A stretch of DNA of 43,668 nt from an uncultured Methanosarcinales archaeon (GTDB lineage Archaea > Nanobdellota > Nanobdellia > Woesearchaeales > DATDXC01). Shown piece by piece: positions 6,639 through 43,565 of this stretch. The position numbers and the translations under genes are program-made. The notes beneath the pieces are model-generated. The model had not been told where the DNA came from, did no database searches, and saw only the letters and a list, made by a program, of their open reading frames with translations. The first letter of the stretch is position 1. Each line of letters starts with the position of its first letter. Location of the stretch: contig CAZDZV010000005.1 in assembly GCA_964510025.1 (NCBI GenBank), positions 62,001 through 105,668 on the forward strand, read 5' to 3'.

Positions 6639-6739
6639 AGTCCCGTGGTGTAGTGGTCAAGCATTTCGGCTTTTGGAGTTGGAAAATGGATTTCCGGCAA
6701 AAACAGCCGAAGACGGCAGTTCGAGTCTGCCCGGGACTA
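6639..6739 (+). tRNA. tRNA-Gln(UUG) with 28-nt intron at canonical 37/38 position (intron 6677-6704)
   Basis: Acceptor AGTCCCG/CGGGACT, anticodon stem TCGGC/GCCGA with TTG at 6673-6675, T arm GGCAG-TTCGAGT-CTGCC, strict bulge-helix-bulge; CCA not encoded; TATA TTTATAAA upstream. Confidence 0.95.
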
Positions 6740-8047
6740 TTTTAGCGGCCTAGATTCATAGACTTGATGCATAGCTTTCTTGTCAGAAGATCTTATCCTG
6801 GCCTGCCATCCGAGCACTTGTAAAGCCTTATCAGGATTTGCAAAAAGTGCGGGTGGGTCTCCTGGTCTCTTATCCCATTCTACCACTACTAGGGCCTTCT
6901 CAGGCAGTGAAGCATGCACCTGCAGCAGCGCAGGCCTGCCATTTTCCAAACGCGCTATATCATAGCTATCTCCCCTTTGGTCTTTTTTTAAGTACACCAA
7001 CGGAACACCTGCTCCCAGGGCAATAAGCTTCATCATCTCTGCATTGGATGTTCCTGTGCCTGTTCCCAGATTATAGGCGCCGGCAGGGGCTCCAAGAGCT
7101 GCAATGTGCGCATCAGCAAGGTCAACAACATGTATGTAGTCTCTTATGCATGTGCGGTCCGGTGTTGGGAAGTCGGTGCCAAACAAAGAAAGAAACTGTG
7201 ATTTTGCCAGGTTATCAGTGTTGTGGTATGCATGAACCCTATCCATTGCAAGAGGAATCAGATGGGTTTCAGGATCATGATCTTCTCTTAATCCGGGATG
7301 GACCCCCCATGCATTAAAATAGCGAAGCTCTACAAAATCTTTTCCAAATTTTTCTGCAAAATACTCAAGAGTGAGCTCATTCATAACCTTTGTCCAACCA
7401 TAAACATTCACCGGATGGCGTAGTCTAGTCTGGGCTTCAGGAGCACTAACATAATCGAGAAATTCCTGATTACCGCTGAATTCCTTGCGTGTAAGCTCCA
7501 TAAGATATTGGTGTAAATCCTCTCCGCCTAGTTTTCCTTTATTGGTATCAGCAGGATCGAGAGCAGACTTTTGTATAGGATCAAGCACCCGCTCTTCTGT
7601 AAAACCTCCTGCCGGGTCCATATCACCAAAAGCAGCTGCTGTGGATGATTTTATAATGCGGGGAACATTGCCCCTATAGAGAACTTCAGCCAGCGTATAG
7701 AATTTGGCGACATTGTTGTTGAAATATTCTTCTGGATCATGCATAGATGTTCCTGCCTCTATCAAAGCAGCAAAATCAATACATGCGTCTATCCTATGGG
7801 CAGCCAATATCCTGCCTAATAGATGAGCATCGCCTACATCCCCATCATAGCCCTGGAATCGTTCAGATCCGTAGGGGATTTCTGTCATCCGGGCAATGCG
7901 GTCTATTGTCTTTTGGGTTCCATTGAAACCTTTATCGCTAACCTGATCCAAAAGAACTATGTTGAGCTCAGCTTGCTGAAGCATCCTCAGTACTGTGTGG
8001 CCACCGATATATCCTGCTCCGCCAGTTACCAGTATTGTCCCAGCCAT
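6737..8047 (-). CDS. UDP-glucose 4-epimerase-like extended SDR with insertions
   Basis: TGGAGYIG, SSTAA, YGWTK, LRYFNA, RDYIHVVDLADAH, RPGDP; 436 aa, longer than typical GalE. Confidence 0.88.
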   Translation of the reverse strand: MAGTILVTGGAGYIGGHTVLRMLQQAELNIVLLDQVSDKGFNGTQKTIDRIARMTEIPYGSERFQGYDGDVGDAHLLGRILAAHRIDACIDFAALIEAGTSMHDPEEYFNNNVAKFYTLAEVLYRGNVPRIIKSSTAAAFGDMDPAGGFTEERVLDPIQKSALDPADTNKGKLGGEDLHQYLMELTRKEFSGNQEFLDYVSAPEAQTRLRHPVNVYGWTKVMNELTLEYFAEKFGKDFVELRYFNAWGVHPGLREDHDPETHLIPLAMDRVHAYHNTDNLAKSQFLSLFGTDFPTPDRTCIRDYIHVVDLADAHIAALGAPAGAYNLGTGTGTSNAEMMKLIALGAGVPLVYLKKDQRGDSYDIARLENGRPALLQVHASLPEKALVVVEWDKRPGDPPALFANPDKALQVLGWQARIRSSDKKAMHQVYESRPLK

Positions 8048-8178: not shown

Positions 8179-8194
8179 TTCCTAGGTGATATTA

Positions 8195-8650
8195 ATGGCA
8201 CGGATGCATTCAAGAAGAAAGGGAAAAGCAGGAAGCACAAAACCTGCTAAGAAAAATGCACCAATATGGCTGAGGTACAAGCCAAAGGAGATTGAGCTTC
8301 TTATAGTTAAACTATCAAAAGAGGGCAAAAGCCCATCCCATATAGGTCTTATACTGAGAGACACATATGGTATTCCTGACGTTACCCTGATCCTAAAAAA
8401 AAGCATCACCGATATACTGGCTGAAAAGAAACTGCTGCCTGAGATACCTGAGGACCTTAGAGCGCTGATAAGGAAGGTGGTAGATATAAGGAAGCACCTT
8501 GAGTCCAACCATAAGGATGAGACTGCAAAAAGGGGCCTTATACTGAGTGAATCCAAAATTAAGAGGCTTGTCAAGTACTATAAAAGAACAAGAAAACTAA
8601 GCTCTGACTGGAAGTACGATCCAGAGAAGGCTGCCCTGTTCACTGAATAA
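8195..8650 (+). CDS. rps15: 30S ribosomal protein uS15 (archaeal S15/S13e type)
   Basis: MARMHSRRKGKAGS, IGLILRDTYGIP, IPEDL, ESKIKRLVKYYK; SD AGGTGAT. Confidence 0.98.
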   Translation: MARMHSRRKGKAGSTKPAKKNAPIWLRYKPKEIELLIVKLSKEGKSPSHIGLILRDTYGIPDVTLILKKSITDILAEKKLLPEIPEDLRALIRKVVDIRKHLESNHKDETAKRGLILSESKIKRLVKYYKRTRKLSSDWKYDPEKAALFTE

Positions 8651-9458
8651 GCCTTATTTTTTCTATTGCTTTCTTTATTACCGAATCCGGGGTAGAGGCT
8701 CCAGCTGTGATGCCGGCCACAGCCTTTCCCCTAAACCAGGCCTCATCTATCTCTGCTCCAGTCTCAATGTGCTTTGTCATCACAACTGAGCTGCACAAAG
8801 CTGCTAATTGCCTGGTGTTAGCGGAATTATGGCCGCCTATGACTATCATAATATCAACCTCTTTTGCCAGATCCAGAGCTGCAGACTGCCTTTCCTGAGT
8901 TGCGTTGCATATGGTGTTTATAAGCCTGACTTCGTCTGCGTGTTGCTTAAGCTCATCGCTAATCTCTATAAAGTGGCCTAATTTTTGAGTGGTCTGTGCT
9001 ACAACACCGATTTTTTTGAAATGCGGCATTTTCCTTGCGTCTTTCAAATCATCGACTATTATGCCCCCCTCTAGGTTTTGCTTTATTGCCTCTACCTCTG
9101 GATGGCCTTTTTGTCCGACTATAATGACCTGGTAACCCTTGCTTTCCAGCTCCTTTGCGTAATCCTGGACCTTCTTTACGAACGGACAGGTAAGATCCAG
9201 CACCTGAAGCCCCTTGGCTTTAATCTCTTTTAAAAGCCTATCAGGGACCCCATGCGTCCTGATCACCACCTTATCTGAATCTACCTGATCTATGGAATCA
9301 ACTGCCTTTATCCCTCTTGACTCTAGATATTTTACGAACTGGGGATTGTGTATCAAAGGGCCCAGGGTATTCACCTCTCCCTTCAATTCAAGCACACATT
9401 CTACTGCTCTTTTTACACCAAAACAAAACCCATGCCTATCAGCTATTCTTACTTCCAT
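8640..9458 (-). CDS. ispH: 4-hydroxy-3-methylbut-2-enyl diphosphate reductase
   Basis: GFCFGV, IHN, THG, TCPFV, GHPEV, QTT, TICNAT, SANT, AGASTP; three Fe-S Cys present. Confidence 0.97.
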   Translation of the reverse strand: MEVRIADRHGFCFGVKRAVECVLELKGEVNTLGPLIHNPQFVKYLESRGIKAVDSIDQVDSDKVVIRTHGVPDRLLKEIKAKGLQVLDLTCPFVKKVQDYAKELESKGYQVIIVGQKGHPEVEAIKQNLEGGIIVDDLKDARKMPHFKKIGVVAQTTQKLGHFIEISDELKQHADEVRLINTICNATQERQSAALDLAKEVDIMIVIGGHNSANTRQLAALCSSVVMTKHIETGAEIDEAWFRGKAVAGITAGASTPDSVIKKAIEKIRLIQ

Positions 9459-10249
9459 TTTGTCCGGGTTGCATATACATATGGATATTTATTTTTCAGA
9501 TTATCATAAGCCTGCATCAATTTTTCTTTATCCTGAAATATTCCAAAGACAGTAGGGCCTTTTCCTGTAATTGAAGCATTTAGGGCTCCTTCCCCATTTA
9601 GGCTGCCTACCATATCCCTGACAATTGGCTTCTGTATATAAATGAAATCGTTATGTAGTGCAGAGCTGATTTCTTCGATATTACCAGCTTTTCTCATCTT
9701 AATGCTCGCTGACTTTCTCTGCTTGTGGACCTTATCCATCTGCGCATAGGCTTCTTTAGTGGAGAGCTGGTATCCTGGATTCACCAATAGGATATTCATT
9801 TTAGCAGCGTGCAGCTCTTCCACCTTATCTCCGTAGCCTGATACAAAAGAGCAGTTTCCTTTAAGAAAAAAAGGAACATCGGCCCCCAATTCACAGGCTA
9901 TCTTTGTAAGCTGGGAGCTGTCAAGGTTGAGATCCCATATCTTGTTCAGGGCCAGCAGCGCAGCAGCTGCATCAGAGGAGCCACCGCCGAGTCCGGCTCC
10001 TGCAGGGATATTCTTCCTTATCTTTATCTCAACCCCCGATTGGACATCAAAAAGCGTTCTTAGCTTCAGGGCTGTCCGTCGGACAATATCATCTTTGAAT
10101 TCTGAAGCTACAACAACATCCTGGTTGCGCGTGAAAAACAGCTCATCAAACAAGTCAATTTTCTGCATAACAGAATTGATATTGTGGTATCCGTCTTTTC
10201 TTTTATCAAGAACGTCTAGGGCGAGATTTATCTTAGCATAGGCCTTCAT
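9449..10249 (-). CDS. ispE: 4-diphosphocytidyl-2-C-methyl-D-erythritol kinase
   Basis: AKINLAL, IPAGAGLGGGSSDAA, LGADVPFF, HNDF; cluster context. Confidence 0.95.
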   Translation of the reverse strand: MKAYAKINLALDVLDKRKDGYHNINSVMQKIDLFDELFFTRNQDVVVASEFKDDIVRRTALKLRTLFDVQSGVEIKIRKNIPAGAGLGGGSSDAAAALLALNKIWDLNLDSSQLTKIACELGADVPFFLKGNCSFVSGYGDKVEELHAAKMNILLVNPGYQLSTKEAYAQMDKVHKQRKSASIKMRKAGNIEEISSALHNDFIYIQKPIVRDMVGSLNGEGALNASITGKGPTVFGIFQDKEKLMQAYDNLKNKYPYVYATRTKWK

Positions 10250-11403
10250 TTTTTATTCAAAGTCACAACCGCCGAAGCCTTAATTCCCTGTCCCTTGCCC
10301 CATGGCGTCAGGTCCTCACCTGATGTCGCAGTTATCCCCACATCAGACCTGTCAAGAGTGCAGAGAGATGCTATGCTTTCCTTTATCTTTTCCTCATATT
10401 CATCTATCCTTGGCTTTTTGGCCTCGATCATAATCCCTATATTGCCGATGGTGTAGCCCCTTTCTGCCGCCATTTTAAGGGCCTTCTCAAGATATTTTTT
10501 GCTGTCAGTTATGCCCTTTTCGTACATCTTATCGGCATAAAAGCCTATGCTCTTGCCCCCTGTTGCCTGGCTTACCGCATTGAATAATGCATGCAGGATA
10601 ACATCTCCATCTGAGTTTGCGTCCAGTCCTTTTTCACCATCTATCTCTACGCCACCAAGCACAAGCTTCTTCTGCTCACTTTCCACGAACCGATGGGAGT
10701 CCTCGCCTAAACCTACCCTTGACGCTTTTGTTATGTTCCTGGCGACTGTTAGATCCACAGGATAAGTTATCTTGACATTTTCAGGGTTTGTCTCTATAAC
10801 CTTAACCTTCCTAGCCATCCTCTCGACCAACGAGACATCATCAGTACCGTAGAATTCTTCCTCGTAAGCTTTCTTAAATGACCTGACGGCCAAACCATAT
10901 TTTATGGCCTGGGGAGTCTGCATCTGCCACAGCTTTTTTCTTTCAAGGGTCTTTTCCACAAAGCCTTTCTCATCCACTTGCTTTATCGTATCCTTTGCTC
11001 TATGGGCGGCGGCAGCTGCCCCATATTTCATGGCTGCGTTTATAGTCTCTGCGATTGTCTTTTTGGTAACAAAAGGATTTACGGCATTGTGGATGACTAC
11101 AATGTCGGATGCCTTAAGCGTGTGAAGATACAGTATGCCGTTGTTCACAGAGTCCTGACGTCTTTCGCCCCCTTCAAGAACCTTCTCAATCTTATCGAGA
11201 TTATGCTCCTGCTTTAGTCTTTCGATCTCAGTGAAATATTCTTTTTTTGCAATTATGATGATCTTGTCGATGAAATCACATTCATGAAAGGTCTTTATGG
11301 AATAGTATATTATCGGCTTGTCATCCAATAATCTGAGTATCTTATTCACTCCGTCGCCCATGCGCCTGCCAATGCCTGCCCCCAAGATTAATGCTACATT
11401 CAT
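10246..11403 (-). CDS. ispDF: Bifunctional IspD-IspF fusion
   Basis: IspD: GAGIGRRM, GGERRQDSV, QTPQ, TDDVS, NVKITYP; IspF: GEDSHRF, SDGDVILHA, GITATSGE. Confidence 0.95.
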   Translation of the reverse strand: MNVALILGAGIGRRMGDGVNKILRLLDDKPIIYYSIKTFHECDFIDKIIIIAKKEYFTEIERLKQEHNLDKIEKVLEGGERRQDSVNNGILYLHTLKASDIVVIHNAVNPFVTKKTIAETINAAMKYGAAAAAHRAKDTIKQVDEKGFVEKTLERKKLWQMQTPQAIKYGLAVRSFKKAYEEEFYGTDDVSLVERMARKVKVIETNPENVKITYPVDLTVARNITKASRVGLGEDSHRFVESEQKKLVLGGVEIDGEKGLDANSDGDVILHALFNAVSQATGGKSIGFYADKMYEKGITDSKKYLEKALKMAAERGYTIGNIGIMIEAKKPRIDEYEEKIKESIASLCTLDRSDVGITATSGEDLTPWGKGQGIKASAVVTLNKK

Positions 11404-12527
11404 CTTTCTTCTGCCTTATCTTTTATTCTCTTATCCACCTCTAGGATCTGGTCTAAGGATGGTTGTTTAATAATTTTATGATTGTCTAGAGTCTCCTTTA
11501 TCCTTTCAGCAATATCCAAGAATCCAATCTTGTTGTCAAGGAATGCTCTTACTGCTACCTCATTGGCAGCATTCATAGCAGCCGGCATCGTTCCCCCTGC
11601 TTTTCCGGCTTCGTAAGCATATCCTAAACACGGAAAAAGATCAAGGTCGGGCTCTCTGAAATCAAGACTCTTGAGCTGAGCTAAATTCAGGCTTCTATGC
11701 TCGCTGGCAAATCTTTTTGGATAGGATAATGCATATTGGATAGGTATCTTCATATCAGGCCACCCTAGCTGCGCTAAAACAGAAGTGTCTTTAAACTCCA
11801 CAAGAGAATGCACTATTGACTGGGGGTGTATAACAACATCGATATCCCCATAATCAACCTTGAATAGGTGATGGGCCTCGATAACTTCAAGCCCCTTATT
11901 CATCAATGTGGCGGAGTCTATTGTTATCTTAGCCCCCATATTCCAGTTAGGGTGCTTAAGAGCATCCTCTTTAGTGACATTTTTCAGTTGCGCTGCTGAT
12001 CTATCCCTGAATGATCCGCCTGAACACGTCAAGATGATCTTCCTGATATCCTTAGAGTCCTCTCCTTTAAGGCACTGAAATATCGCTGAGTGTTCTGAGT
12101 CGATAGGTGTCAGCTGAACACCTTTTTTTTTCGCCAGCTGCATCACTATTCTTCCAGCCGCTACAAGCGTTTCCTTGTTCGCAAGCGCAACATCTTTGCT
12201 TGCTTTTATTGCTTCTACTGTGGGAACAATTCCTATGCTCCCCACCATGGAATTCAAGACAATATCACAGCTATCTAAGCTGGCTAGCTTTGCAAGCCCT
12301 TCCATGCCTGAGAGCACCGGGATATCTGCTCTCAGGGAATCTGCTTTCTCCTTTTCGAAAACAGCGACAGCTTCTGGACTAAATTCCTCAATCTGCTTTG
12401 CCAGCAGGCCGATATTTGAATTGCATGCCAAAGCCTTAACCTGGAATCTGGAAGGATTATTTCTTACAATCTGCAATGCCTGTGTCCCTATACTGCCTGT
12501 TGAGCCCAGTATCACTACGCGCTTCAT
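11400..12527 (-). CDS. dxr: 1-deoxy-D-xylulose 5-phosphate reductoisomerase
   Basis: LGSTGSIG, LANKE, PIDSEHSAIFQ, HPNWNMGAKITIDSATLMNKGLEVIEA, PDMK, NAANE. Confidence 0.98.
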   Translation of the reverse strand: MKRVVILGSTGSIGTQALQIVRNNPSRFQVKALACNSNIGLLAKQIEEFSPEAVAVFEKEKADSLRADIPVLSGMEGLAKLASLDSCDIVLNSMVGSIGIVPTVEAIKASKDVALANKETLVAAGRIVMQLAKKKGVQLTPIDSEHSAIFQCLKGEDSKDIRKIILTCSGGSFRDRSAAQLKNVTKEDALKHPNWNMGAKITIDSATLMNKGLEVIEAHHLFKVDYGDIDVVIHPQSIVHSLVEFKDTSVLAQLGWPDMKIPIQYALSYPKRFASEHRSLNLAQLKSLDFREPDLDLFPCLGYAYEAGKAGGTMPAAMNAANEVAVRAFLDNKIGFLDIAERIKETLDNHKIIKQPSLDQILEVDKRIKDKAEER

Positions 12528-12551
12528 AGACAGTCAGTAAACTGCAGTTCA

Positions 12552-12566
12552 TTTTAAAGGTTTTTA
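12552..12566 (-). promoter_or_regulatory. TATA-type promoter for dxr-ispDF-ispE-ispH
   Basis: Minus strand AAAAACCTTTAAAA about 25 nt upstream of the dxr ATG (leaderless geometry). Confidence 0.55.
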
Positions 12567-12639
12567 TAGTAAAGTAAATTTATATTGTTATTGAAAAGTA
12601 ACAAAAGCTTTAAAAGAAGGGGCTGATTACAGGAGCTAA

Positions 12640-13521
12640 ATGACAGTAACATACTTGACAAAGATATTCAGAATAGCGGCAGATTTGGCTATTAGGCAGA
12701 AAAAAAGAGAGGGTGTGCCATGCCGGCTTGATGATCTGGCAGAAGCTACAGGTATTGGCAAGGCCTATATTTCACAAGTGCTTCACTCAAACAGAAGATA
12801 TGAATCGATGGAACCAGAAAGATTTAACAGTCTTTGTGGTGCCTTAAACCTCGAGCCCGATACATATCTTGTAAAAAAAGTTGAAGCACGGCTGCTTGGC
12901 GGAGAAACAGTAAGCATTGATGATTTTCTGCCTCATTCTAGCCCGTATTATGTAAAGCCACCCAAAGATATTTCAACCAGCAGGGCAGCTTATTTCAGCG
13001 AAATCTTTGCCCTTATCGCAGTGAGGGCTCTTGCCGGAAATAAAAGGATAGGAGAACAGCCGCACAGCCAGGCTGATCTAGTACGCCTTACAGGATACAA
13101 TAAAGGTCAATTATGTCAAATGCTGGATGAGAACAATGAATTTAATCTTGTTAATCCTGAGAAATTCAAAAAACTCTGCAGTGCCCTAGACCTTGATCCA
13201 GATGCATTTCTTGTTAGGGAGGTTGAAGAAAGGCTGCTCAGAGGTGAACGAATAACATATCGGAGCTTTATCCCTCAAATCCAACTTACTGCCTATGAAC
13301 TTCCATCCGAAGTTATGCTAATCGGGGAGCTGAAGGGGGATGCACTTAGATACGCATACGCAGTTCCATCTACAGAGGTCGGGACCTTTGCTGCAGACCA
13401 GGGAATCGGCATATGGGAGGCTGCAAGACAGCTATGGGAAACGGCTGGGCTGAAAGGATTATTCACAGTACGCCCTTTTTCACCTGATAACACTAGGGCT
13501 TATGAATTTAAATCAAGTTAG
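12640..13521 (+). CDS. Hypothetical protein with two internally repeated Xre/Cro-like HTH modules
   Basis: LDDLAEATGIGKAYISQVL..FNSLCGALNLEPDTYLVKKVEARLLGGE versus QADLVRLTGYNKGQLCQML..FKKLCSALDLDPDAFLVREVEERLLRGE. Confidence 0.75.
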   Translation: MTVTYLTKIFRIAADLAIRQKKREGVPCRLDDLAEATGIGKAYISQVLHSNRRYESMEPERFNSLCGALNLEPDTYLVKKVEARLLGGETVSIDDFLPHSSPYYVKPPKDISTSRAAYFSEIFALIAVRALAGNKRIGEQPHSQADLVRLTGYNKGQLCQMLDENNEFNLVNPEKFKKLCSALDLDPDAFLVREVEERLLRGERITYRSFIPQIQLTAYELPSEVMLIGELKGDALRYAYAVPSTEVGTFAADQGIGIWEAARQLWETAGLKGLFTVRPFSPDNTRAYEFKSS

Positions 13522-14535
13522 TCTGCCGACAATCTTATCTATAATCTCCTGCTCTTTGACTTTCTCTACTATCTGGCCTTTCTCATAGAGCAAGCACCTG
13601 TCCTTTCCACCAACAACACCGATATCAGCTTCTTTTGCCTCGCCTGGACCATTTACACAGCAGCCCATTATCGCTATCTTGATTGGATCCTTCAGGCTGG
13701 CTGTTTTTTCTTCGATTTTTTTTGCGATAGCTGCTACATCTATGTCTGCCCTGGCGCAGGTGGGGCATGCAATTACGCTGATGCCCCTTTGTCGCAAATT
13801 CAGGGCCTTTAAAATCTGCCAGCCTGCCTTAACCTCTTCAACAGGATCACCTGACAATGAAACCCTTATTGTGCTTCCTATGCCTTCTGAAAGCAGGATT
13901 CCTATCCCTACAGCATTATTGATGGCCCCTGTAAATACCGAACCTGCTTCAGTGACCCCAAGATGGAGCGGATAGTCATATTCTTCTGAAAAAAGGCGAT
14001 TTGCCTTCACCATCTTATTAACATCTGATGATTTCAGCGAAACAACTGTATCATAGAAATCATTTTTTTCAAGGAAAGAAATCTCTTTAGCTGCAGAGGC
14101 TACCATTGCTTCCGGCGTTAGACCATATCTCCCCTCAATATCCTTATCCAGGCTGCCCAGATTAACGCCCACCCTGATGGGAATAGCATTGTCTTTGGCT
14201 GCCTGGATGACCTTCTTCACTTTCCGCTGATCACCAATGTTCCCTGGATTGATCCTGAGCTTATCGGCAAATTTTGCAGATTCTATCGCCAGCCTATAGT
14301 CAAAATGAATGTCTGCAACCAAAGGAATTGCAATGTTTTCTTTTATCTCTTTCAATGCATAAGCTGAATCCATGTCAGGAACACTTACCCGGACTATCTC
14401 ACAGCCGTGCTCTTCCAGATCATGAATCTGCTCTATTGTAGAAGACGTGTCGGTGGTCTGGGTAGTACACATGCTTTGCACTGTAACAGGAGAATCCCCC
14501 CCTACTGTGATATTGCCCACCCTAATCTTTTTCAT
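13513..14535 (-). CDS. ispG: (E)-4-hydroxy-3-methylbut-2-enyl-diphosphate synthase
   Basis: VQSM, PLVADIHF, RINPGN, IRVGVN, LHLGVTEAG, CPTCAR, MGCCVNGPGEA. Confidence 0.98.
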   Translation of the reverse strand: MKKIRVGNITVGGDSPVTVQSMCTTQTTDTSSTIEQIHDLEEHGCEIVRVSVPDMDSAYALKEIKENIAIPLVADIHFDYRLAIESAKFADKLRINPGNIGDQRKVKKVIQAAKDNAIPIRVGVNLGSLDKDIEGRYGLTPEAMVASAAKEISFLEKNDFYDTVVSLKSSDVNKMVKANRLFSEEYDYPLHLGVTEAGSVFTGAINNAVGIGILLSEGIGSTIRVSLSGDPVEEVKAGWQILKALNLRQRGISVIACPTCARADIDVAAIAKKIEEKTASLKDPIKIAIMGCCVNGPGEAKEADIGVVGGKDRCLLYEKGQIVEKVKEQEIIDKIVGRLT

Positions 14536-16379
14536 GATGCTTGTCTTATGATATTCTCTTTTGATAAACCTAGCTTCTTTCGCAACAAAGAAACAGGACC
14601 ATGGGGGACGAATCGATCTGGAATACCGATCCTTTTCACCTCTGTCCTTATCTTTTTTTTCTCTAAAAATTCCAAAAGCGCAGAGCCAAAGCCCGCCTGC
14701 AGCGCATTTTCTTCAACAGTAATGACTTTTTTTGCCTTTTTTGCGAAGCGGATTATTGTTTTCTCATCCAGAGGCTTGATGAATCTGGCATTTATGACTG
14801 CTGCCGACTTCAAGCTTCTGGATGCCTGTAAGGCCTCTTCCACCATAGAACCAACAGCAAATATGGCGGTATCTCTTCCTGACTTGAGAACCTCATAGCT
14901 ACCTATTGGTATTTTTTTATAGGGGTTCTGGATAGCTACGCCTATACCACATCCCCTAGGGTATCTTAATGCAGCAGGACCACCATGTTCAATCGCGGTC
15001 CTAAGCATATGTCCCAGCTCATTCTCATCCTTAGGGGCCATCACGACCATATTAGGTATATGGCGAAGGTAGCTCAAATCAAAGGCGCCGTGGTGGGTGG
15101 GGCCGTCCTCGCCTACAAGACCTGCCCGATCCAATGCAAAGGTAACTGGAAGGTTCTGAAGAGCAACATCATGCACAATCTGGTCATAGGCCCTCTGAAG
15201 GAAAGTAGAATAGACTGCTACAACCGGCTTCATCCCTTGGGAAGCGAGGCCTGCTGCAAAAGTCACTGCATGCTGCTCAGCTATCCCCACATCAAAGAAT
15301 CTTTGGGGAAATGCTTTTTGGAAGCTTTCCAAGCCGGTGCCGGATGACATTGCCGCAGTGATGGCAACGATGCTCTTGTCTTTTTCTGCCAGCTTCATAA
15401 GACATTTTGAAAAGGCTTGCGTAAATGTTGTTGTGCTGTTGCAGACAATCTTTTTGCCATTGGCAGGGTCAAAGGGGCTTATGCCATGAAATTTTACCTT
15501 GTCTCTCTCTGCATATTTATAGCCATGGCCTTTCTTCGTGATTACATGCAGGATCCTGGGCCCCTTAAGCTTCTTGATATTCTGCAATGAGGTTATAAGC
15601 TCTTTGAGGTCATGGCCGTCTATGGGTCCGAAATAGTTGAAGCCTAACTCCTTAAACAATAATCCAGGAGTCGAGCTAAAGGCTCTTAGTGTCTCTTCCA
15701 TGTTCGCTGCCAATAGTCCCGCCCTGTCGCCTATCAGGGGCAGCTCGTTCAGGAAATTCTTTGCAGTCTTTTTTCTTTCCAGGTAGTTAGGATCTGTCAC
15801 CATCTTTCTGAGATATGTATTCAGGGCACCGATATTTGGGCTTATAGACATCTTATTATCGTTCAATATGACTATGAGATCGGTGTCAAGATCACCTGCC
15901 TGATTCAGGGCTTCGAAGGCCATTCCGCCTGTAAGGGCTCCGTCCCCGATAACTGAGACCACCTTATACTGTTCTTTCCTCAGATCCCTGGCTTTCGCTA
16001 TTCCAAGCGATGCAGAGATAGAGGTAGAGCTGTGCCCTGTATTGAATGCGTCGTAAATGCTTTCCTCTTTTTTGGGAAACCCGCTCAGGCCCTGGTATCT
16101 GCGCAATGAACCGAACTTAGCTGATCTGCCTGTAAGTAGCTTATGGGCATAGGTCTGGTGGCCTACATCCCATATTATCTTATCAGCAGGCGTATCGAAC
16201 ACATGGTGCAGCGCTATTGTCAGCTCAACAACACCCAAGGAGGAAGCAAGATGGCCGCCTGTCTTAGCTACTGTGGATATTATTTTGTTGATTATCTCTT
16301 TCTTCAGCTTAAACAGCTCTTCTATTGTCAAAAGGCGTAAATCTCCTGGTGAGCTAATCATCCCTAAGATATCTGACAT
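14532..16379 (-). CDS. dxs: 1-deoxy-D-xylulose-5-phosphate synthase
   Basis: GGHLASSLG, WDVGHQ, GHSSTSIS, TPP motif GDGALTGG..NDN, IAEQHA, YSTFLQR, DRAG. Confidence 0.98.
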   Translation of the reverse strand: MSDILGMISSPGDLRLLTIEELFKLKKEIINKIISTVAKTGGHLASSLGVVELTIALHHVFDTPADKIIWDVGHQTYAHKLLTGRSAKFGSLRRYQGLSGFPKKEESIYDAFNTGHSSTSISASLGIAKARDLRKEQYKVVSVIGDGALTGGMAFEALNQAGDLDTDLIVILNDNKMSISPNIGALNTYLRKMVTDPNYLERKKTAKNFLNELPLIGDRAGLLAANMEETLRAFSSTPGLLFKELGFNYFGPIDGHDLKELITSLQNIKKLKGPRILHVITKKGHGYKYAERDKVKFHGISPFDPANGKKIVCNSTTTFTQAFSKCLMKLAEKDKSIVAITAAMSSGTGLESFQKAFPQRFFDVGIAEQHAVTFAAGLASQGMKPVVAVYSTFLQRAYDQIVHDVALQNLPVTFALDRAGLVGEDGPTHHGAFDLSYLRHIPNMVVMAPKDENELGHMLRTAIEHGGPAALRYPRGCGIGVAIQNPYKKIPIGSYEVLKSGRDTAIFAVGSMVEEALQASRSLKSAAVINARFIKPLDEKTIIRFAKKAKKVITVEENALQAGFGSALLEFLEKKKIRTEVKRIGIPDRFVPHGPVSLLRKKLGLSKENIIRQAS

Positions 16380-16465: not shown

Positions 16466-17314
16466 ATGAACAAAAAGACCCAAGTGACGGTATTAGGCAT
16501 ATTTCTAAATGCAGTACTGTTTCTGGCCAAACTTGTTACAGGGATATTTTCCAACAGCCTGGCGCTCCTTTCTGATGCATTCAATTCCTTAACCGACATA
16601 GCGTCATCTGTCAGCGTTTTCATTGCTGTGAAATTCGCCAGCAAGAAAGCTGACAAAGAGCACCCATTCGGACATCGAAGGGCAGAGCCTTTAGCAGGTA
16701 TAATTGTGGCCATATTTTCAGGAATATTGGGATTTGAGATTCTTAGACAAGCAGTGATGAGCTTTTTTGAGCCACCAAGGGAGATCCTGGGGGTATATGC
16801 TATCTATGTATTAGCAGCTTCGATTGTAGCAAAGCTGGCAATTGCTAGATATTTTACAAGATATGGCAGGAAAACGAACAGTCCTGCAATCAAGGCCTGC
16901 GGGATTGATGCCAGAAATGATGTATTGGCCAGCTCCATCGCCATAGTAGGCATCATCTGCTCTATGTTTGGCCTGCCAGTCTTCGACAGTATAACTGCTG
17001 TAATCATAAGCCTATTCATATTTTATTCGGGCTATAGAATAGCCATTGAGAATATTGACTATCTCATGGGGAAATCACCTTCAGCTGAACATATAGAAAA
17101 AATCAAGAAACTGGTCAGGAAAATTAAGGGTGTAAGGGGATTAAATGATGTTAAGGCCCACTACGTCGGAAATTTTATCCATATTGAGATTCATATCGAG
17201 GTCGATAGAAAAATAAGTACAAAAAAATCCCACGACATAGGCAAAAAGGTTGAAAAGGCAGTAGAAGATCTCGGAGATGTTGACAAAGCCTTTATCCATA
17301 TAGATCCGAAATGA
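16466..17314 (+). CDS. Cation diffusion facilitator transporter (FieF-like)
   Basis: SLALLSDAFNSLTD, HPFGHRRAE, DARND, C-terminal HIEIHIE..HDI..IHIDP. Confidence 0.93.
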   Translation: MNKKTQVTVLGIFLNAVLFLAKLVTGIFSNSLALLSDAFNSLTDIASSVSVFIAVKFASKKADKEHPFGHRRAEPLAGIIVAIFSGILGFEILRQAVMSFFEPPREILGVYAIYVLAASIVAKLAIARYFTRYGRKTNSPAIKACGIDARNDVLASSIAIVGIICSMFGLPVFDSITAVIISLFIFYSGYRIAIENIDYLMGKSPSAEHIEKIKKLVRKIKGVRGLNDVKAHYVGNFIHIEIHIEVDRKISTKKSHDIGKKVEKAVEDLGDVDKAFIHIDPK

Positions 17315-17928
17315 ATGAAGAGAAAGAAGAAGAGCCTTGGTGGAAAGGGCCTATCAGGACCATAATCACGATTTTTATATTGCTAATTGTCTTAACCTGG
17401 ACCTATGCTATATATGGGGGGAAGATAGATCCAGAACCAGTTAGAATACCTAGTCCAGAAGAGGTGCTGCCTGATTACAAAATAGGAAACAGAAGCTACA
17501 CTCTAAGCGACTACCAAAGACTGATCAAACCTTCTGATGTTATGATAAAACAAACTGCTGACAGGATTGCAGCTATCAGCTGCTCCGGCAACAGGATATG
17601 CCAAGCTAAGGCCATGTATTATTTCGTCAGGAACTATGATTATATCGCTGACCCGGTGGACGGTGAGTATATAGAGCATCCCAAGGAATTCCTAAAGATT
17701 GGCGGAGGAGACTGTGAATCTGGCGCTATTGCGTTGGCTAGCCTATTAGAGGCGATCGGCATAGCGTCTGATATTGTATATACACCAGGGCATGCGCTGT
17801 TAAGGATAAGGCTGCCTGAGGCTTCCAATAGATATAAGATAGACGGTTACATCTATCTTGATTGGACCTGCAAAAGGTGCAGGTTCGGTGAGCTTGGCCT
17901 TAAAGCAATGGAACAGTTAGATTTTTAA
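17311..17928 (+). CDS. Membrane-anchored transglutaminase-like protein
   Basis: N-terminal TM helix; GGDCES, PGHA, YLDWT give a Cys-His-Asp triad. Confidence 0.85.
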   Translation: MNEEKEEEPWWKGPIRTIITIFILLIVLTWTYAIYGGKIDPEPVRIPSPEEVLPDYKIGNRSYTLSDYQRLIKPSDVMIKQTADRIAAISCSGNRICQAKAMYYFVRNYDYIADPVDGEYIEHPKEFLKIGGGDCESGAIALASLLEAIGIASDIVYTPGHALLRIRLPEASNRYKIDGYIYLDWTCKRCRFGELGLKAMEQLDF

Positions 17929-17951
17929 AAAATCGAAGATTTCTGCGACAG

Positions 17952-18356
17952 ATGCCTTGCTGTCAGTTCGGTGGTGGTATGCCTTCTTTAAGGTCCAGGA
18001 AGCAACCAAGACAATATCGGCCAAGAAACCCATACTATTTAGGGCTGTATAGGGGAAATCATGATGGGTATAACCATACCTTAGTCATAAGGCCTTCTGG
18101 TGAGGATATCAGTGAGCTATTGGACAGATTGGAAGGTAAACAGAACATCCTAGTGGATGACCCCCCTCCTGGTGTGCTGGCCATACAGCTAGCCAGAAAG
18201 CTTGATGCTCTTGGATGGCAGCATGGGGAGCCTGAAATACTATCGAAAAATAGCAGAGTAATTGGACTAGATGTTGAACAATATCAGTATGGCAAAATCC
18301 GAGAACTCCTCACTTATTTCAGCAGGATATACAGGGAAGCTGCAAGCAGACGTTAA
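17952..18356 (+). CDS. Hypothetical protein
   Basis: 134-aa ORF filling the gap before rpl1; no recognisable motif; start uncertain. Confidence 0.55.
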   Translation: MPCCQFGGGMPSLRSRKQPRQYRPRNPYYLGLYRGNHDGYNHTLVIRPSGEDISELLDRLEGKQNILVDDPPPGVLAIQLARKLDALGWQHGEPEILSKNSRVIGLDVEQYQYGKIRELLTYFSRIYREAASRR

Positions 18357-18397
18357 AACCGTTAGTTTTTTAAATAAAAGATGATTTCTAGACCATA

Positions 18398-18426
18398 CCC
18401 GATCAAGACTACTTAATGTAGGAGGG
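18398..18426 (+). promoter_or_regulatory. Candidate uL1-binding autoregulatory site overlapping the SD
   Basis: CCC-GATCAAGA-CTAC-TTAAT-GTAG-GA-GGG: two helices with asymmetric internal loop and GGAG strand. Confidence 0.55.
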
Positions 18427-18430
18427 CAGA

Positions 18431-19129
18431 ATGAACAAGGAAGATATTAAAAAAACATTACAGGCAGCAAAAAAGAATTCTGCTAAAAGGAATTTTAATC
18501 AAAGCATCGATTTAAACGTGGTGCTAAAAGGGATAGATATCAAGAAAAGCGACCAAAACGTTAATTCCTTCGTAACTTTGCACTATCAAACCGGAAAAAA
18601 GGTTTCTGTATGCGCTCTTGTTGGACCTGAACTGAAGGCCCAAGCAGAAGAGGTTTGCGATCATACCATAACTGATGGTGATTTCGGCAAATACCAAAAC
18701 AAGAAAGATGCAAAAAAACTTGCCAGAAAATATGATTTTTTTATAGCACAAGCAACCATAATGCCAAAGATAGCGACTGCTTTTGGCAGGGTCTTCGGCC
18801 CCAAAGGTAAGATGCCGAACCCAAAAGCTGGGTGTGTTGTACCTCCAAATGCAAACCTTAAGCCGTTATATGAGAAGCTGCAGAAAACAGTAAGGCTTCA
18901 GACCAAGAACCAGCCAATTGTCCAGACCAGGGTAGGCATTGAAGACCAGGCTGAAAATGAGGTTGTCGATAATATATTCACTGTCTATGACAACCTATCG
19001 CATAATCTCCCTAACGGCGAACAGAACATTAAGAAGTCCTTGATAAAGCTAACCATGGGCAAATCCTATAGAATCGGCGAGGTTATCAAGGAAGATAAAC
19101 CAGAAAAGACTGATTCAACTAAAAAGTAA
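18431..19129 (+). CDS. rpl1: 50S ribosomal protein uL1
   Basis: KRNFNQSIDL, YDFFIAQATIMP, FGPKGKMP, KLTMG. Confidence 0.97.
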   Translation: MNKEDIKKTLQAAKKNSAKRNFNQSIDLNVVLKGIDIKKSDQNVNSFVTLHYQTGKKVSVCALVGPELKAQAEEVCDHTITDGDFGKYQNKKDAKKLARKYDFFIAQATIMPKIATAFGRVFGPKGKMPNPKAGCVVPPNANLKPLYEKLQKTVRLQTKNQPIVQTRVGIEDQAENEVVDNIFTVYDNLSHNLPNGEQNIKKSLIKLTMGKSYRIGEVIKEDKPEKTDSTKK

Positions 19130-19131
19130 AA

Positions 19132-20412
19132 ATGGCACACGTCTCTGAAAACAAAAAAAAGACTGTAGACAGGATAGCTAAACTAATAGCAGATTATCCT
19201 ATCGTAGGCGCTGTTAACATGGAAAACCTTCCTGCGCCCCAGCTGCAGACAATGAGAGCCCAGCTCAGGGGAAAGGTAGAGATCTTCATGGCGAAGAGGA
19301 GACTGATCAGGATTGCTATTGAAAAGGTAAAAGAAAAGAAGCAGGGCATAGAGGGTCTTGAAAAGCACCTAAAGGGGATGCCTGCCCTGATTTTTACAAA
19401 AGATAATCCTTTTACGCTATTCAAGACTCTTAAGAAAAGCAAATCCAAGGCACCTGCAAAAGCAGGACAGACTGCCCCTAATGATATAATTGTCAAGGCG
19501 GGGCCGACACCCTTTGCACCGGGCCCTATCATAGGTGAACTGGGCAGCCTTGGGATTAAGTGCGGGGTAGAGGGAGGCAAGGTTGCGATAAAAGAGGACT
19601 CGATTGTTGCCAAAGAAGGTGAGAAAATAAGCCCTAAACAAGCTGAACTATTGACCAGGCTCGGAATAGAGCCGATGGAAGTGGGGCTGGGCCTCACAGC
19701 AACCTACGAAGACGGCACGATTTTCACAAAGGATATACTGGATATAGATGAAGAAAAGTTCAGGAAGGATCTAGACATCGCTGCTGTTGGGGCAATCAAC
19801 CTCTCTATCAATGCAGGGTATCCGACAAAAGACAACATCAGCCTAATGATAGGTAAGGCCTTCAATGATGCCAAGGCATTAGGTATCGAGCAGAACATAA
19901 TCGATGAAGGTATAATTGATGAGATACTAGCAAAAGCGGCAAGACAGATGCACAGCCTAAAAAATACTGCAAACATCGAGATAGTGGAAAAGAAGACAGA
20001 GAGCAAACAAAAGATAGAGAAGGCTGAAAAAAAGGAAGAAAAGATACTACAAGAGGAGAAAAAGATAATAGATGAGGAGAAAAAATTAGAAAAGCAGGAA
20101 CAAAAAGTTGAAGCCCCCATAGAAAAGGAAGCCAGGCAGGCTGTGAAAGAAGAAGAGGAAAAAAAGCTGGAAGCTGAGAGGATCCAGAAAGAAAAAGAGC
20201 TTGAGAAAACAGAAAAGGCGGTGGAAACAGATAAGAAAGTGGACGGAATGGTCAAAAAGATGAAACAGTTTGCTTCTGGAAAACAGCCAAATGCTGAAAA
20301 AATCCTGGATGATGTAAAAAAGGAAGAAGAGCCCGAACAAAAGGACAAGGAGCACAAAGAAGCCGAGGAATTAACTAAAGAACTGCTCAAAAAAGGTACA
20401 CTCAGAAAATGA
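19132..20412 (+). CDS. rplP0: 50S ribosomal protein uL10 (aP0) with long K/E-rich tail
   Basis: LPAPQLQTMR, NPFTL, APAKAG, GPTPFAPGP, LLTRLGIEPMEVGL; operon position. Confidence 0.96.
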   Translation: MAHVSENKKKTVDRIAKLIADYPIVGAVNMENLPAPQLQTMRAQLRGKVEIFMAKRRLIRIAIEKVKEKKQGIEGLEKHLKGMPALIFTKDNPFTLFKTLKKSKSKAPAKAGQTAPNDIIVKAGPTPFAPGPIIGELGSLGIKCGVEGGKVAIKEDSIVAKEGEKISPKQAELLTRLGIEPMEVGLGLTATYEDGTIFTKDILDIDEEKFRKDLDIAAVGAINLSINAGYPTKDNISLMIGKAFNDAKALGIEQNIIDEGIIDEILAKAARQMHSLKNTANIEIVEKKTESKQKIEKAEKKEEKILQEEKKIIDEEKKLEKQEQKVEAPIEKEARQAVKEEEEKKLEAERIQKEKELEKTEKAVETDKKVDGMVKKMKQFASGKQPNAEKILDDVKKEEEPEQKDKEHKEAEELTKELLKKGTLRK

Positions 20413-27918: not shown

Positions 27919-28386
27919 ATGGAAATTCTAGATCTAATAATCATTACCCTGATACCCGGTTTAGAGCTAAGAGCTTCTATCCCTTATGGCATTATCCAAG
28001 GAATGAACTGGTTTTTGGTTTTTTCAGTATGTGTGGTCACAAATATAATACTAGGGGTCATAGTCTTCAAGCTTATAGACGGGATAATTATGATAGTAAA
28101 AAAAATACATGTGATAGACATGTTCTGGAGCGTATATGTTGACAGAACACAAAAAAGGATAAGAAGTGCTGTCAAAAAATGGGGTGAATTTGCTGTAGCT
28201 GTCTTTATAGCTATCCCCCTGCCCGGGTCAGGGGTCTATTCAGGAGCGCTTGCTGCTTATCTAATCGGGCTTGATTTCAGAAAATTTTTAATAGCTAACG
28301 TAATAGGGGTCATAGTTGCAGGTGCCATAGTAGCGGCTGTCTCAGTAACAGGTGCAGGCATATTTAGTCTCTTCACTGGCGCATGA
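27919..28386 (+). CDS. COG2426 / small multi-drug export family membrane protein
   Basis: PGLELRASIPYG and FIAIPLPGSGVYSG motifs. Confidence 0.85.
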   Translation: MEILDLIIITLIPGLELRASIPYGIIQGMNWFLVFSVCVVTNIILGVIVFKLIDGIIMIVKKIHVIDMFWSVYVDRTQKRIRSAVKKWGEFAVAVFIAIPLPGSGVYSGALAAYLIGLDFRKFLIANVIGVIVAGAIVAAVSVTGAGIFSLFTGA

Positions 28387-28955
28387 AATACCGAAACAAT
28401 ATCATCATCTTTGCTGTCGGCCTAGTTCTAGCTTCATTTAGCTTTTACTTTGATAAGGCAGCATTTCTGATCATGGACAGAATCCGGAACCCGGTAATAG
28501 ACTACCTGATGGGTGCAGTCACACACTTTGGCTCTGTTATTGTTGTCCTCATATTCATGACAACACTCTTCCTGTGGGGCGAACGTAAAAGAGAGTGGAT
28601 CCCTGTACTTTGGCTATCTTTCCTCATTTCAAGCGCTGCCTGCATCGGGTTAAAGATGTTAGTTGCAAGGCCAAGGCCTTTTGAGCTTTTGATTATAAGT
28701 TTTTTTGGGGCTGTAAACTATTCTTTTCCGAGCCTGCATACAACAGCCTCATTCACTGCAATAGAGGTCCTAGACCGGGAATTTCCAAAATTCAAATGGT
28801 TTTGGGTTCTGTTCGCGTTTATGGTTGCGTTCAGCAGGGTGTATCTTAAGCTCCATTATCTCAGTGATGTAGCATTTGGGGCCTTATTGGGCTACACCAT
28901 TGGATTCATCCTGATCAGGTTAGAGGAAAGATTCAGACTGTTCAGGAGGCTATGA
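28383..28955 (+). CDS. PAP2-family membrane phosphatase
   Basis: K...ARPRP, SFPSLH, SRVYLKLHYLSDV. Confidence 0.93.
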   Translation: MKYRNNIIIFAVGLVLASFSFYFDKAAFLIMDRIRNPVIDYLMGAVTHFGSVIVVLIFMTTLFLWGERKREWIPVLWLSFLISSAACIGLKMLVARPRPFELLIISFFGAVNYSFPSLHTTASFTAIEVLDREFPKFKWFWVLFAFMVAFSRVYLKLHYLSDVAFGALLGYTIGFILIRLEERFRLFRRL

Positions 28956-35087: not shown

Positions 35088-35095
35088 CGAGCTCA
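35082..35095. other. Archaeal/alphaproteobacterial junction (probable chimera)
   Basis: Abrupt switch from AT-rich to very GC-rich sequence; dut and alr both truncated. Confidence 0.92.
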
Positions 35096-35529
35096 CGCGC
35101 CCCGGCATCGGCCTGTATGGCGGCGCGCCCTTCGCCGAGGCCGAGCCGGTGGTCGCGCTGTCGCTGCCGGTGATCCAGACCCGCCTCGTCCGCCCGGGCG
35201 AGAGCGTGGGCTACGGCGCCACCTGGACGGCGCGGCAGGACACGCTGGTGGCCACCGTCGCCGCCGGCTACGCCGACGGGCTCGACCGGCACCTGTCGAA
35301 CGCGGGCACGCTCTGGTCCGGCGGCACGCCCTGCCCGATCCTCGGCCGCGTCTCGATGGACCTCATCGGCTGCGACGTCACCGCGCTGCCGGAGTTCCCC
35401 GAATGGCTGGACGTGCTCTGCCCCGCCCAGGGCATCGACGCGCTGGCAGAGGCCACCGGCACCATCGGCTACGAGGTGCTCACCACGCTGGGCCGCCGCT
35501 ACGCGCGCCGCTACGCCGGGCCCGCATGA
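35089..35529 (+). CDS. alr: Alanine racemase, 3' part only
   Basis: [37 protein letters not shown]. Confidence 0.95.
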
Positions 35530-36299
35530 GGGCGCTGGCCGCCATCGGCGCCTCCACGCTCGCCCTGCTGGCGGGCGCGGGGCGGGCGACGCTGTTCCTG
35601 CTGGCCGGCCTCCGCGCGTTGGTCCTGCCGCCGTTCTATGTCCGGGAGTTCGCCCGTGCCCTCGCGACGATTGGGTATTTCTCGCTGCCGGTCGTCGGGC
35701 TGACGGCCTTTTTCACCGGCGGCGCGCTGGCGCTGCAGATCTACGACGGCGGCGCGCGCTTCAACGCGCAGTCGGTCGTCCCCTCGATCGTCGCCATCGG
35801 CATGGTGCGCGAGCTCGGCCCCGTCCTCGGCGGGCTGATGGTGGCCGCGCGCGTGGCCTCCTCGATCGCCGCCGAGATCGGCACCATGAAGGTGACCGAG
35901 CAGATCGACGCGCTCGTCACCCTCTCCACCGATCCGATGCGCTACCTCGTCGCCCCGCGCCTGCTGGCCGGCACCCTGGCCGTGCCCGCCCTGGTGGCGG
36001 TGGGCGACGCCATCGGCATTCTCGGCGGCTGGATCGTGGGCACCTCGCGGCTGGGCTTCAACTCCGCGGTCTATCTTCAGACGACGGCCGATTATCTGGA
36101 AGCGGCGGACGTCGTCTCCGGGCTCGTGAAGGGGGCCGTCTTCGGCCTGATCGTCGCGCTGATGGGCTGCTTCTTCGGCATGACGTCGGGCCGTGGGGCG
36201 CAGGGCGTGGGCCGGGCGACGAAATCGGCCGTGGTCTCCGCCTCCATCCTCATTCTGGCTGCCAACTACCTGCTGACGGAGGTTTTCTTCTCGGCATGA
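35526..36299 (+). CDS. mlaE: MlaE-family ABC permease
   Basis: [36 protein letters not shown] overlap with the alr stop. Confidence 0.95.
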
Positions 36300-37042
36300 T
36301 CGCGGTGGAGGGGCTGTGGAAGGCGTTCGGCGACACGCCGGTGCTCCGGGGCGTGTCGCTGCAGGTCGCCGCGGGCGAAAGCTGCGTCGTGATCGGCGGC
36401 TCGGGCACGGGAAAATCCGTCCTTCTCAAGTGCATCCTCGGCCTCGTTCAACCGGATGCCGGGACCGTCTCGTTCGAGGGAAGGCCGCTGACGCAGGGGA
36501 ATCGCGCGGCGTTCCTCGACCGGTTCGGCATGCTGTTCCAGGGCGCGGCGCTGTTCGATTCCCTGCCCGTCTGGCAGAACGTCGCCTTCCGCCTGCTGCG
36601 CGGCGCGGCGAAGCGCCCCCGGGAGGAGGCGCGCGCCATCGCGCTGGAAAAGCTGCGCCGGGTCGGCCTGTCGGCGGACGTGGCCGACCTGTACCCGGCC
36701 GAGCTGTCCGGCGGGATGCAGAAGCGCGCGGGCCTCGCGCGCGCGATCGCCGCCGATCCCGAGATCATCTTCTTCGACGAGCCTACGACGGGCCTCGATC
36801 CGATCCTCGCGGGCGTGATCAACGCGCTGATCCGCGAGATCGTCACCGAGATGGGCGCCACCGCGATCACCATCACCCACGACATGACCTCGGTGCGCGC
36901 CATCGCCGACCGGGTGGCGATGCTGCATGACGGGGTCGTCCAGTGGCAGGGGACCGTCGCAGAAATGGACATCACGCCAGACCCTTGCGTGTCGCAGTTC
37001 ATCCACGGCCGGGCCGAGGGGCCGATCAGCGCGCTGCGCTAG
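36296..37042 (+). CDS. mlaF: MlaF-family ABC ATPase
   Basis: [34 protein letters not shown]. Confidence 0.95.
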
Positions 37043-38520: not shown

Positions 38521-38624
38521 CGCCTTCCCCCGGCAGGCCAGTCGAAAGATGCTGACGCCGCTTGTGAGCGTCGGTCAAGATCGCTACTCCACCACAAGAT
38601 ATAGGTGAAGCGGATGTGACTGCC

Positions 38625-39200: not shown

Positions 39201-39231
39201 ACGCCCGTGGCCCTGCGGGCCGCGGCCCGCC

Positions 39232-39855: not shown

Positions 39856-39952
39856 GCGTCCGCCTTCCTGCCCCCCGCGGGGCCGGGCCCCGCGCCCCAT
39901 CCGGTCGTCCGGGGTCGCCGCGCCGCGGCGGGGACCCGCCCGGTCCGGCGCC

Positions 39953-41347
<1,395 letters not shown>

Positions 41348-41387
41348 GTCTGCGCTCATGCCCTGCCCGCGCCCGGGCGGCAAGGGC

Positions 41388-41441
41388 GGGTGCGGGGGCC
41401 AGCCCCCGCACCCCCGGAGTATTTGCGCCAAGATGATGGGG
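41388..41441. repeat. REP-like palindromic intergenic element
   Basis: GGGTGCGGGGGC-CA-GCCCCCGCACCC followed by CCGGAGTATTTGCGCCAAGATGATGGGG; single copy in window. Confidence 0.55.
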
Positions 41442-41554
41442 CAGCAGAGCGGGGGCCGGGCGGGCGCGGCGCCCTGCGGCGGGCCGCCCGGCCCCGAAGG
41501 CGGCGGTTGCGGCGTGCTGCGACGCGGGGCGCTGTCCGGTGGGGCGCGTGCCGC

Positions 41555-43545: not shown

Positions 43546-43565
43546 TCGCGCAGGAGGAGACAGGG

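Follow-up and report, generated by a model that had tools for sequence, protein, structure and literature searches.

Genes of the bacterial-type methylerythritol phosphate (MEP) route to isoprenoids are already known from Woesearchaeota, where, according to the available text, they are co-located in a clade of 52 genomes (PMC8204110), with rps15, cis-prenyltransferase and geranylgeranyl diphosphate (GGPP) synthase genes among the neighbours given in Supplementary Table 4 of that paper. Subgroups F and J are described as carrying the pathway with a fused ispD/F gene and as lacking geranylgeranylglyceryl phosphate (GGGP) and digeranylgeranylglyceryl phosphate (DGGGP) synthases (PMC8421398), and MEP genes have also been reported in some Micrarchaeota (PMC12892359) and in marine DPANN genomes (PMC10936187). 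Here we analyzed the MEP genes of a Woesearchaeales archaeon carried by a stretch of 43,668 nucleotides of contig CAZDZV010000005.1 (the window). The original prediction, made from the letters of the window, had called such genes in an archaeon rare rather than unprecedented; their presence in Woesearchaeota bears this out, whereas the novelty was overstated, as co-location and the ispD/F fusion are described in the text seen of PMC8204110 and PMC8421398. Publications of 2018 and 2021 already cover pathway, fusion and clustering in Woesearchaeota, and a published trait gains one more genome here; what is new is the proposed product sink, the lack of a primer enzyme and the IspD-F variant.

We show that the genes are present as a complete bacterial-type MEP set and linked, that they share ancestry within the order, and what the gene content of the genome is. 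On this basis we consider it likely that the products of this set feed a dolichol-type lipid carrier for protein N-glycosylation and surface glycans, and not ether lipids.

MEP genes of the window and their catalytic motifs

The list of open reading frames (ORFs) and a profile search of the window revealed that all seven MEP steps are encoded, as predicted, by six minus-strand ORFs at 8640-16379; the seven enzyme families are full length and each domain scores above its NCBIfam cut-off. The features are:

14532-16379, minus strand: dxs; TIGR00204, 855 bits (cut-off 466), motif patterns of the family matched
13513-14535, minus strand: ispG, hydroxymethylbutenyl diphosphate (HMBPP) synthase, 340 aa; TIGR00612, 421 bits (cut-off 280); 4-bp overlap with dxs
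11400-12527, minus strand: dxr, deoxyxylulose phosphate (DXP) reductoisomerase, 375 aa; TIGR00243, 523 bits (cut-off 316)
10246-11403, minus strand: ispD-ispF fusion, 385 aa; TIGR00453 (IspD), 205 bits (cut-off 181), and TIGR00151 (IspF), 148 bits (cut-off 116)
9449-10249, minus strand: ispE, diphosphocytidyl methylerythritol (CDP-ME) kinase, 266 aa; TIGR00154, 183 bits (cut-off 139); aligned to solved IspE
8640-9458, minus strand: ispH, HMBPP reductase, 272 aa; TIGR00216, 271 bits (cut-off 188); final gene of the cluster
12640-13521, plus strand, antisense to the MEP genes: orphan double helix-turn-helix (HTH) ORF; PF13443, E 5e-7, two weak Cro/C1-type HTH matches
8186-8650, plus strand, convergent to ispH: archaeal rps15 (uS15); NF006331, 204 bits (cut-off 154)
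17311-20412, plus strand: transglutaminase-like gene, a short ORF and archaeal rpl1-rpl10, the anchor on the dxs side
28383-28955, plus strand: PAP2 phosphatase (PF01569), candidate polyprenyl-diphosphate phosphatase, outside the cluster

The single cluster of the original prediction proved to be two blocks, dxs-ispG and dxr-ispDF-ispE-ispH, divided by the HTH ORF on the opposite strand. Within each block adjacent genes overlap by 4-10 bp, and ispH and the archaeal rps15 overlap, as predicted, by 11 bp at their 3' ends (8640-8650); no trans-prenyltransferase gene follows ispH at this end of the cluster in the window. The HTH ORF (third-codon-position GC, GC3, of 0.36) had no homologue besides itself among 1948 candidates, so that a role as regulator of the cluster is unsupported. 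In five relatives checked, the gap between ispG and dxr also holds ORFs, variable in number and size, which suggests an insertion hotspot.

The motifs, described in the original prediction as intact, are so in DXS, DXR, IspE, IspG and IspH and only partly in IspD-F. In the first five, every catalytic or cofactor pattern taken as characteristic of the families was matched; these patterns include the cluster Cys and Glu of IspG and the three Cys and the His/Glu motifs of IspH. Alignment of IspD-F to solved structures showed that in the IspD H-D-x-x-R-P motif Asp and Arg are each replaced by Asn (Asn106 and Asn109), at positions that we take to be substrate-binding, and a literature search found no paper on this pair. 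In the IspF domain, Asn263 occupies the position of E. coli His34 and Ser285 that of Asp56, while the metal ligands Asp235, His237, His271 and Glu363 are retained. In E. coli IspF, His34 stabilises a loop and its backbone binds the 2-phosphate, Asp56 binds ribose, and the metal ligands named in the portion seen of that paper are those kept here (PMC2151065). The two IspD substitutions occur in 120/120 homologues each, and the IspF His-to-Asn and Asp-to-Ser changes in 115/120 and 116/120; at the loci of relatives the IspD Asn pair was found in 21/23, the IspF Asn in 20/23 and the Ser in 23/23, while bacterial comparison domains (five IspD, six IspF) are all canonical at these positions. Since the substitutions are near invariant, selection is suggested, and we read IspD-F as a putative working variant under selection.

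Linkage, gene order and ancestry

The flanks of the cluster are archaeal, with Dph5, rps15, rpl1-rpl10-P1, RpoE, a CCA enzyme and TYW1 recognised by profile search. A GalE-like epimerase of 436 aa with insertions (6737-8047, GC3 0.38) adjoins rps15. At ~35.09 kb the GC content of the contig jumps from ~42% to 70-78%, the only jump of its kind among the 33 contigs of the assembly; there, a dUTPase stops after residue 88 and runs into a C-terminal piece of an alanine racemase, and the tail that follows (~35088-43668) carries the bacterial genes mlaE, mlaF, LysM, cvpA, radA, SDR and Hint. The contig therefore looks chimeric near this point, judging from its genes and composition, a feature that the original prediction had missed, and findings in the tail, including a tRNA-Gly call at 40372, should not be taken as archaeal.

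Given this apparent chimera, composition alone could not settle whether the MEP genes belong to the archaeon. A misassembly that placed bacterial DNA in an archaeal contig would agree with the jump within the same contig, and with the absence, among the contigs listed, of one that spans the whole cluster or bridges the HTH-ispG junction. Against it, both outer borders are bridged with zero differences: the dxs side, from dxs to rpl1, by a 3505-base contig (15406-18910, run X1), and the rps15-ispH junction by a 517-base contig (8546-9062, run X3, another sample). The contigs compared derive from separate assemblies of three runs of one study, of which X1 may be the source sample, and no joints are listed at either border. 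Composition agrees, as the original prediction had it: the MEP genes have a GC3 of 0.46, nine archaeal genes one of 0.45 and the high-GC tail one of 0.92, and the codon usage of the MEP genes correlates with that of the archaeal genes (r = 0.89) and not with that of the tail (r = -0.25). Furthermore, genomes of other genera and families show these neighbours as well, the closest IspD-F homologues with a name bear the labels Nanoarchaeota, Woesearchaeota, Nanoarchaeia or archaeon, and DXR falls into an archaeal clade. The MEP cluster is not a misassembly; this explanation is largely refuted and we regard it as extremely improbable. The predicted linkage is thus real, and the contigs of the separate assemblies showed no break at either border. 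In run X3, single-contig loose ends were seen at 6617, 7017 and 9560.

The dxr gene was found in 16/61 relatives, this genome counted, and in 31/201 genomes of the order (28/198 without three unpublished genomes). Comparison of gene order on stretches from 32 relatives, many of them ended by contig ends, revealed rps15 together with MEP genes in 12; six have the transglutaminase-like gene, rpl1-rpl10 or both next to the MEP genes, and six show the complete order dxs-ispG-dxr-ispDF-ispE-ispH. IspE-IspH fusions were seen in G027, G096, G142 and G173 (L018:6058-7692, L085, L088 and L089).

In a DXR tree (109 rows, quick LG+G4, midpoint root), 30 of 32 archaeal sequences, including this DXR, form one clade (Shimodaira-Hasegawa-like approximate likelihood ratio test, SH-aLRT, 99) within a group whose other members are mostly Bacillota; the two outside it are G008 and G192, the latter on a long branch. 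IspD-F (support 100), IspE (100), IspH (86) and rps15 (92) each fall among their counterparts from the genome's own family, while DXR is placed with G200, which belongs to another family (SH-aLRT 97). Replacement of dxr was considered and is not shown, as an own-family clade is not rejected by the approximately unbiased (AU) test (p 0.105). Among 77 bacterial dxr loci (80 less three that were omitted; 19/64 parts of the collection were scanned), the top bacterial identity was 57%, for DXR and for IspG, and no locus held more than three of the six MEP genes within 8 kb, in line with the predicted scatter of these genes in bacteria. The near-identity to a bacterium that the original prediction had named as refuting was not seen among these loci, and the DXR clade, the distance to bacteria, the own-family grouping and the matching codon use fit an old acquisition from bacteria followed by presumably mostly vertical descent and patchy loss. 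Separately, records labelled Riflebacteria and Gastranaerophilales carry a cluster of their own, trans-prenyltransferase-ispD-ispE-dxr-ispF (L136, L143, L144, L162, L163, L189); their DXR proteins are near-related, and a transfer between these two groups is possible.

Patchy occurrence also bears on whether the cluster is a relic that has been decaying since a trans-prenyltransferase was lost. The low count of dxr genomes in the order, the orphan gene inserted mid-cluster and the lost terminal gene would accord with decay. The six ORFs, however, are full length, above their cut-offs and overlap their neighbours; the same-family genomes G001 and G004 keep the abutment of ispH on rps15 and intact MEP genes at 51-75% identity; and the near-invariant substitutions of IspD-F suggest selection. 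We therefore judge a relic very unlikely.

A glycan carrier as the probable sink of the pathway

To follow the products isopentenyl diphosphate (IPP) as well as dimethylallyl diphosphate (DMAPP), we searched the genome (G000; 97.7% complete, 33 contigs) for prenyl-using families, and compared it with a panel in which 28 genomes carry dxr and 32 do not; the dxr-negative ones were picked from those listed and are mostly at least 90% complete. The panel includes kin that are not independent, and four dxr-negative genomes carry ispH, so that the groups are imperfect. A mevalonate route, as judged by HMG-CoA reductase, and GGGP synthase, whose search the original prediction had suggested, were not found in this assembly, and GGGP synthase above cut-off was absent from 60/60 panel genomes. 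A weak PcrB match was rejected as GGGP synthase; from its motifs we take it to be a HisA-like barrel. UbiA-family proteins, glycerol 1-phosphate (G1P) dehydrogenase, MiaA and squalene/phytoene synthase were likewise not found in this assembly, and no other prenyl sink appeared among the families searched, a search that involved no whole-genome annotation and did not extend to thiamine or pyridoxal phosphate (PLP) use of DXP. HMG-CoA reductase occurs in 2/60 panel genomes; in the dxr-positive G138 (C8:9809-10912; L105) its domain lies inside an open frame of 1036 residues.

These absences bear on the original proposal for Woesearchaeota, that IPP and DMAPP go to archaeal ether membrane lipids (Castelle and Banfield 2018, through its citation in PMC8421398). 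In some genomes UbiA-family genes do neighbour the MEP genes (PMC8204110, in the part available), they occur in 29/60 panel genomes, and a gene resembling geranylgeranyl reductase (GGR) is present here. On the other hand, GGGP synthase is missing throughout the panel; UbiA, G1P dehydrogenase and trans-prenyltransferase were not found in this genome; and its four PlsC-type acyltransferases point to ester lipids, which may make up the bulk membrane, though PlsY was not found. An ether-lipid sink is thus a most improbable destination in this archaeon.

The machinery for a glycan carrier is, by contrast, encoded. The genome carries two unlinked cis-prenyltransferase homologues. The copy on contig C16 (G000:C16:18143-18784) has all catalytic positions and the terminal RXG intact, and in its type 11/13 sites are invariant in 50/50 orthologues. 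The copy on contig C8 (G000:C8:42283-43029; L034:1402-2151), oriented divergently to a gene for a FlaK-like prepilin peptidase, is degenerate at all catalytic positions and lacks RXG, as do all of the 21 C8-type copies aligned from the order (0/21); we take it for a putative conserved pseudo-enzyme. On contig C3 (~86.7-91.9 kb; L101:8681-13859), the GGR-like gene immediately precedes aglB, and genes for an AglJ/PpgS-like family 2 glycosyltransferase (GT2) and for GT1/4 enzymes come after aglB; AglB has the WWDxG motif and a C-terminal FKBP domain. The GGR-like protein matches PDB 3oz2, and its gene occurs in 43/60 panel genomes, in 29 of these 43 within 3 kb upstream of an STT3 match. A PglC-type transferase (PF02397) is encoded on contig C6. 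Among 30 ispH-positive genomes, 12 have a prenyltransferase gene within 500 bp of ispH (eight trans, four cis), and in two, G043 and G068, ispH is fused to a trans-prenyltransferase (L031:3825-5708, L093:6232-8133).

With the sink families not found, an intact cis-prenyltransferase and a GGR-like gene upstream of aglB, IPP and DMAPP probably serve to make a dolichol-type glycan carrier. Since a Haloferax mutant deleted for GGR loses saturated dolichol phosphate (PMC10821996, as far as its available text goes), the simplest reading leads from MEP through polyprenyl diphosphate and a dolichol-type carrier to AglB. Pyruvate and glyceraldehyde 3-phosphate would flow through the seven MEP steps to IPP and DMAPP; the intact C16 enzyme would elongate with IPP; the resulting polyprenyl diphosphate would become a monophosphate, possibly through the action of PAP2; the GGR-like protein would saturate the chain; the neighbouring GT2 and GT1/4 enzymes and the PglC-type transferase would load sugars; and AglB would transfer the glycan. 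Gene content and context in this way narrow the fate of IPP and DMAPP, which the original prediction had left unresolved, to a probable polyprenyl- or dolichyl-phosphate carrier.

Several observations weigh against a dolichol-type carrier. The GGR-like protein falls narrowly below its family cut-off (TIGR02032, 156 bits against 159), and its substrate assignment is a prediction; the PAP2 assignment is weak (top NCBIfam match undecaprenyl-diphosphatase SepP, 48 bits, far under the cut-off of 250), a SufBD match is partial, and IspD-F deviates from the canonical substrate-binding residues. Moreover, the cis-prenyltransferase is found in 28/28 dxr-positive and also in 27/32 dxr-negative genomes, and STT3 in 57/60 of the panel, so that the downstream machinery does not track MEP, and co-occurrence alone says little. 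Its presence in dxr-negative genomes, together with the rarity of HMG-CoA reductase, indicates that many relatives obtain prenyl precursors elsewhere. In the near-closed genomes G020, G029 and G032, a motif-intact cis-prenyltransferase and AglB were found, and dxr, ispH, HMG-CoA reductase and trans-prenyltransferase were not.

The same data would suit a working pathway whose output is passed to a partner or to an unrecognised prenyl-using enzyme, the carrier lipid being scavenged as in dxr-negative relatives, which retain cis-prenyltransferase, the GGR-like gene and AglB; the trans enzyme that would make the primer was found neither here nor in 9/30 ispH-positive genomes, and the IspD-F substitutions are lineage-wide. 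Linkage and fusion of ispH and prenyltransferase genes in relatives nevertheless favour internal use, and the families searched offered no other sink. We hold export or another use to be decidedly improbable and retain the dolichol-type carrier as the likely destination.

The weak step of the carrier route is the allylic primer, because no trans-prenyltransferase was found: the assembly gave no PF00348 match and no tblastn match, and our own hidden Markov model (HMM), run on 28150 six-frame segments, had a best E of 2.3. The gene is present in 20/28 dxr-positive, 14/32 dxr-negative and 21/30 ispH-positive genomes. In the same-family G003 it sits between ispH and rps15, which abut in G000, G001 and G004; G000, G001, G002 and G004 (98, 60, 92 and 79% complete) gave no match, so that a true loss is more likely than four assembly gaps. 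Cis-prenyltransferases are normally primed by farnesyl diphosphate (FPP) or GGPP (PMC13586052, text available in part), which also counts against a carrier made here, and priming from DMAPP is described, in the text seen of PMC8131916, for short plant products. Of four explanations, each less likely than not, a cis enzyme that begins from DMAPP stands slightly ahead of FPP or GGPP scavenged from a host; a trans-prenyltransferase gene missed in the assembly is less likely, and an unrecognised enzyme the least. In the cis enzyme, a Trp close to the allylic site seemed at first suggestive as a marker of the trans enzyme (dxr-positive genomes, 14/19 vs 0/7) and was rejected over all 50 rows (22/31 vs 7/19; independent pairs, median p 1); no sequence feature predicting primer use was found in the cis-prenyltransferase alignment.

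A more specific version, in which MEP with a re-tuned IspD-F would serve solely a glycan carrier, an all-cis polyprenyl phosphate would be primed by DMAPP with no FPP/GGPP synthase, GGR would be dedicated to AglB and the bulk membrane would consist of ester lipids, is improbable as a whole.

Comparison with known systems

The question of what MEP products are used for in Woesearchaeota unable to make ether lipids can be tested through three small soluble enzymes, namely IspD-F, the cis-prenyltransferase and the reductase linked to aglB. Should the carrier reading be true, MEP gives part of the lineage host-independent surface glycosylation, and if the cis enzyme starts from DMAPP, the archaeon would build a long glycan carrier primer-free, by a reaction otherwise described for short plant products. 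Undecaprenyl, dolichol and glycosylation are not mentioned in the portions seen of the main texts of PMC8204110 and PMC8421398, and neither an MEP-to-dolichol link nor a GGR-aglB adjacency was found for this lineage in literature that left subscription journals and the supplements of PMC8421398 largely outside the search.

As far as their available texts describe them, the Woesearchaeota clusters of these two papers resemble the present one in the whole pathway, its co-location, the ispD/F fusion, a DXR near Bacillota and the lack of GGGP and DGGGP synthases; unlike in those published, here no UbiA or trans-prenyltransferase was found assembly-wide and an orphan HTH gene divides the cluster. 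With canonical bacterial MEP it shares the seven families above cut-offs, the DXS, DXR, IspE, IspG and IspH motifs and the IspF metal ligands, and it differs in forming one cluster instead of being scattered, in the fixed IspD and IspF substitutions and in having no FPP synthase downstream. One active-looking and one degenerate cis-prenyltransferase paralogue recall the heteromeric enzymes DHDDS/NgBR, Methanosarcina MA3723/MA4402 and Archaeoglobus Af1219/Af0707. In those, the accessory subunit gives the C-terminal RXG to a partner without it (PMC12998183, text seen in part), whereas here the reverse holds, the active-looking copy having RXG and the degenerate copy none, and the genes are unlinked.

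The dolichol-phosphate/AglB system of Haloferax volcanii, in which GGR reduces the omega isoprene, differs in that the precursors in our archaeon would be derived from MEP and not from mevalonate, with no GGPP synthase for the primer and no ether lipids for GGR. It is like the present system in its components: a cis-prenyltransferase, a GGR-like protein, a GT2 enzyme and AglB are all present here, the genes of the last three being adjacent.

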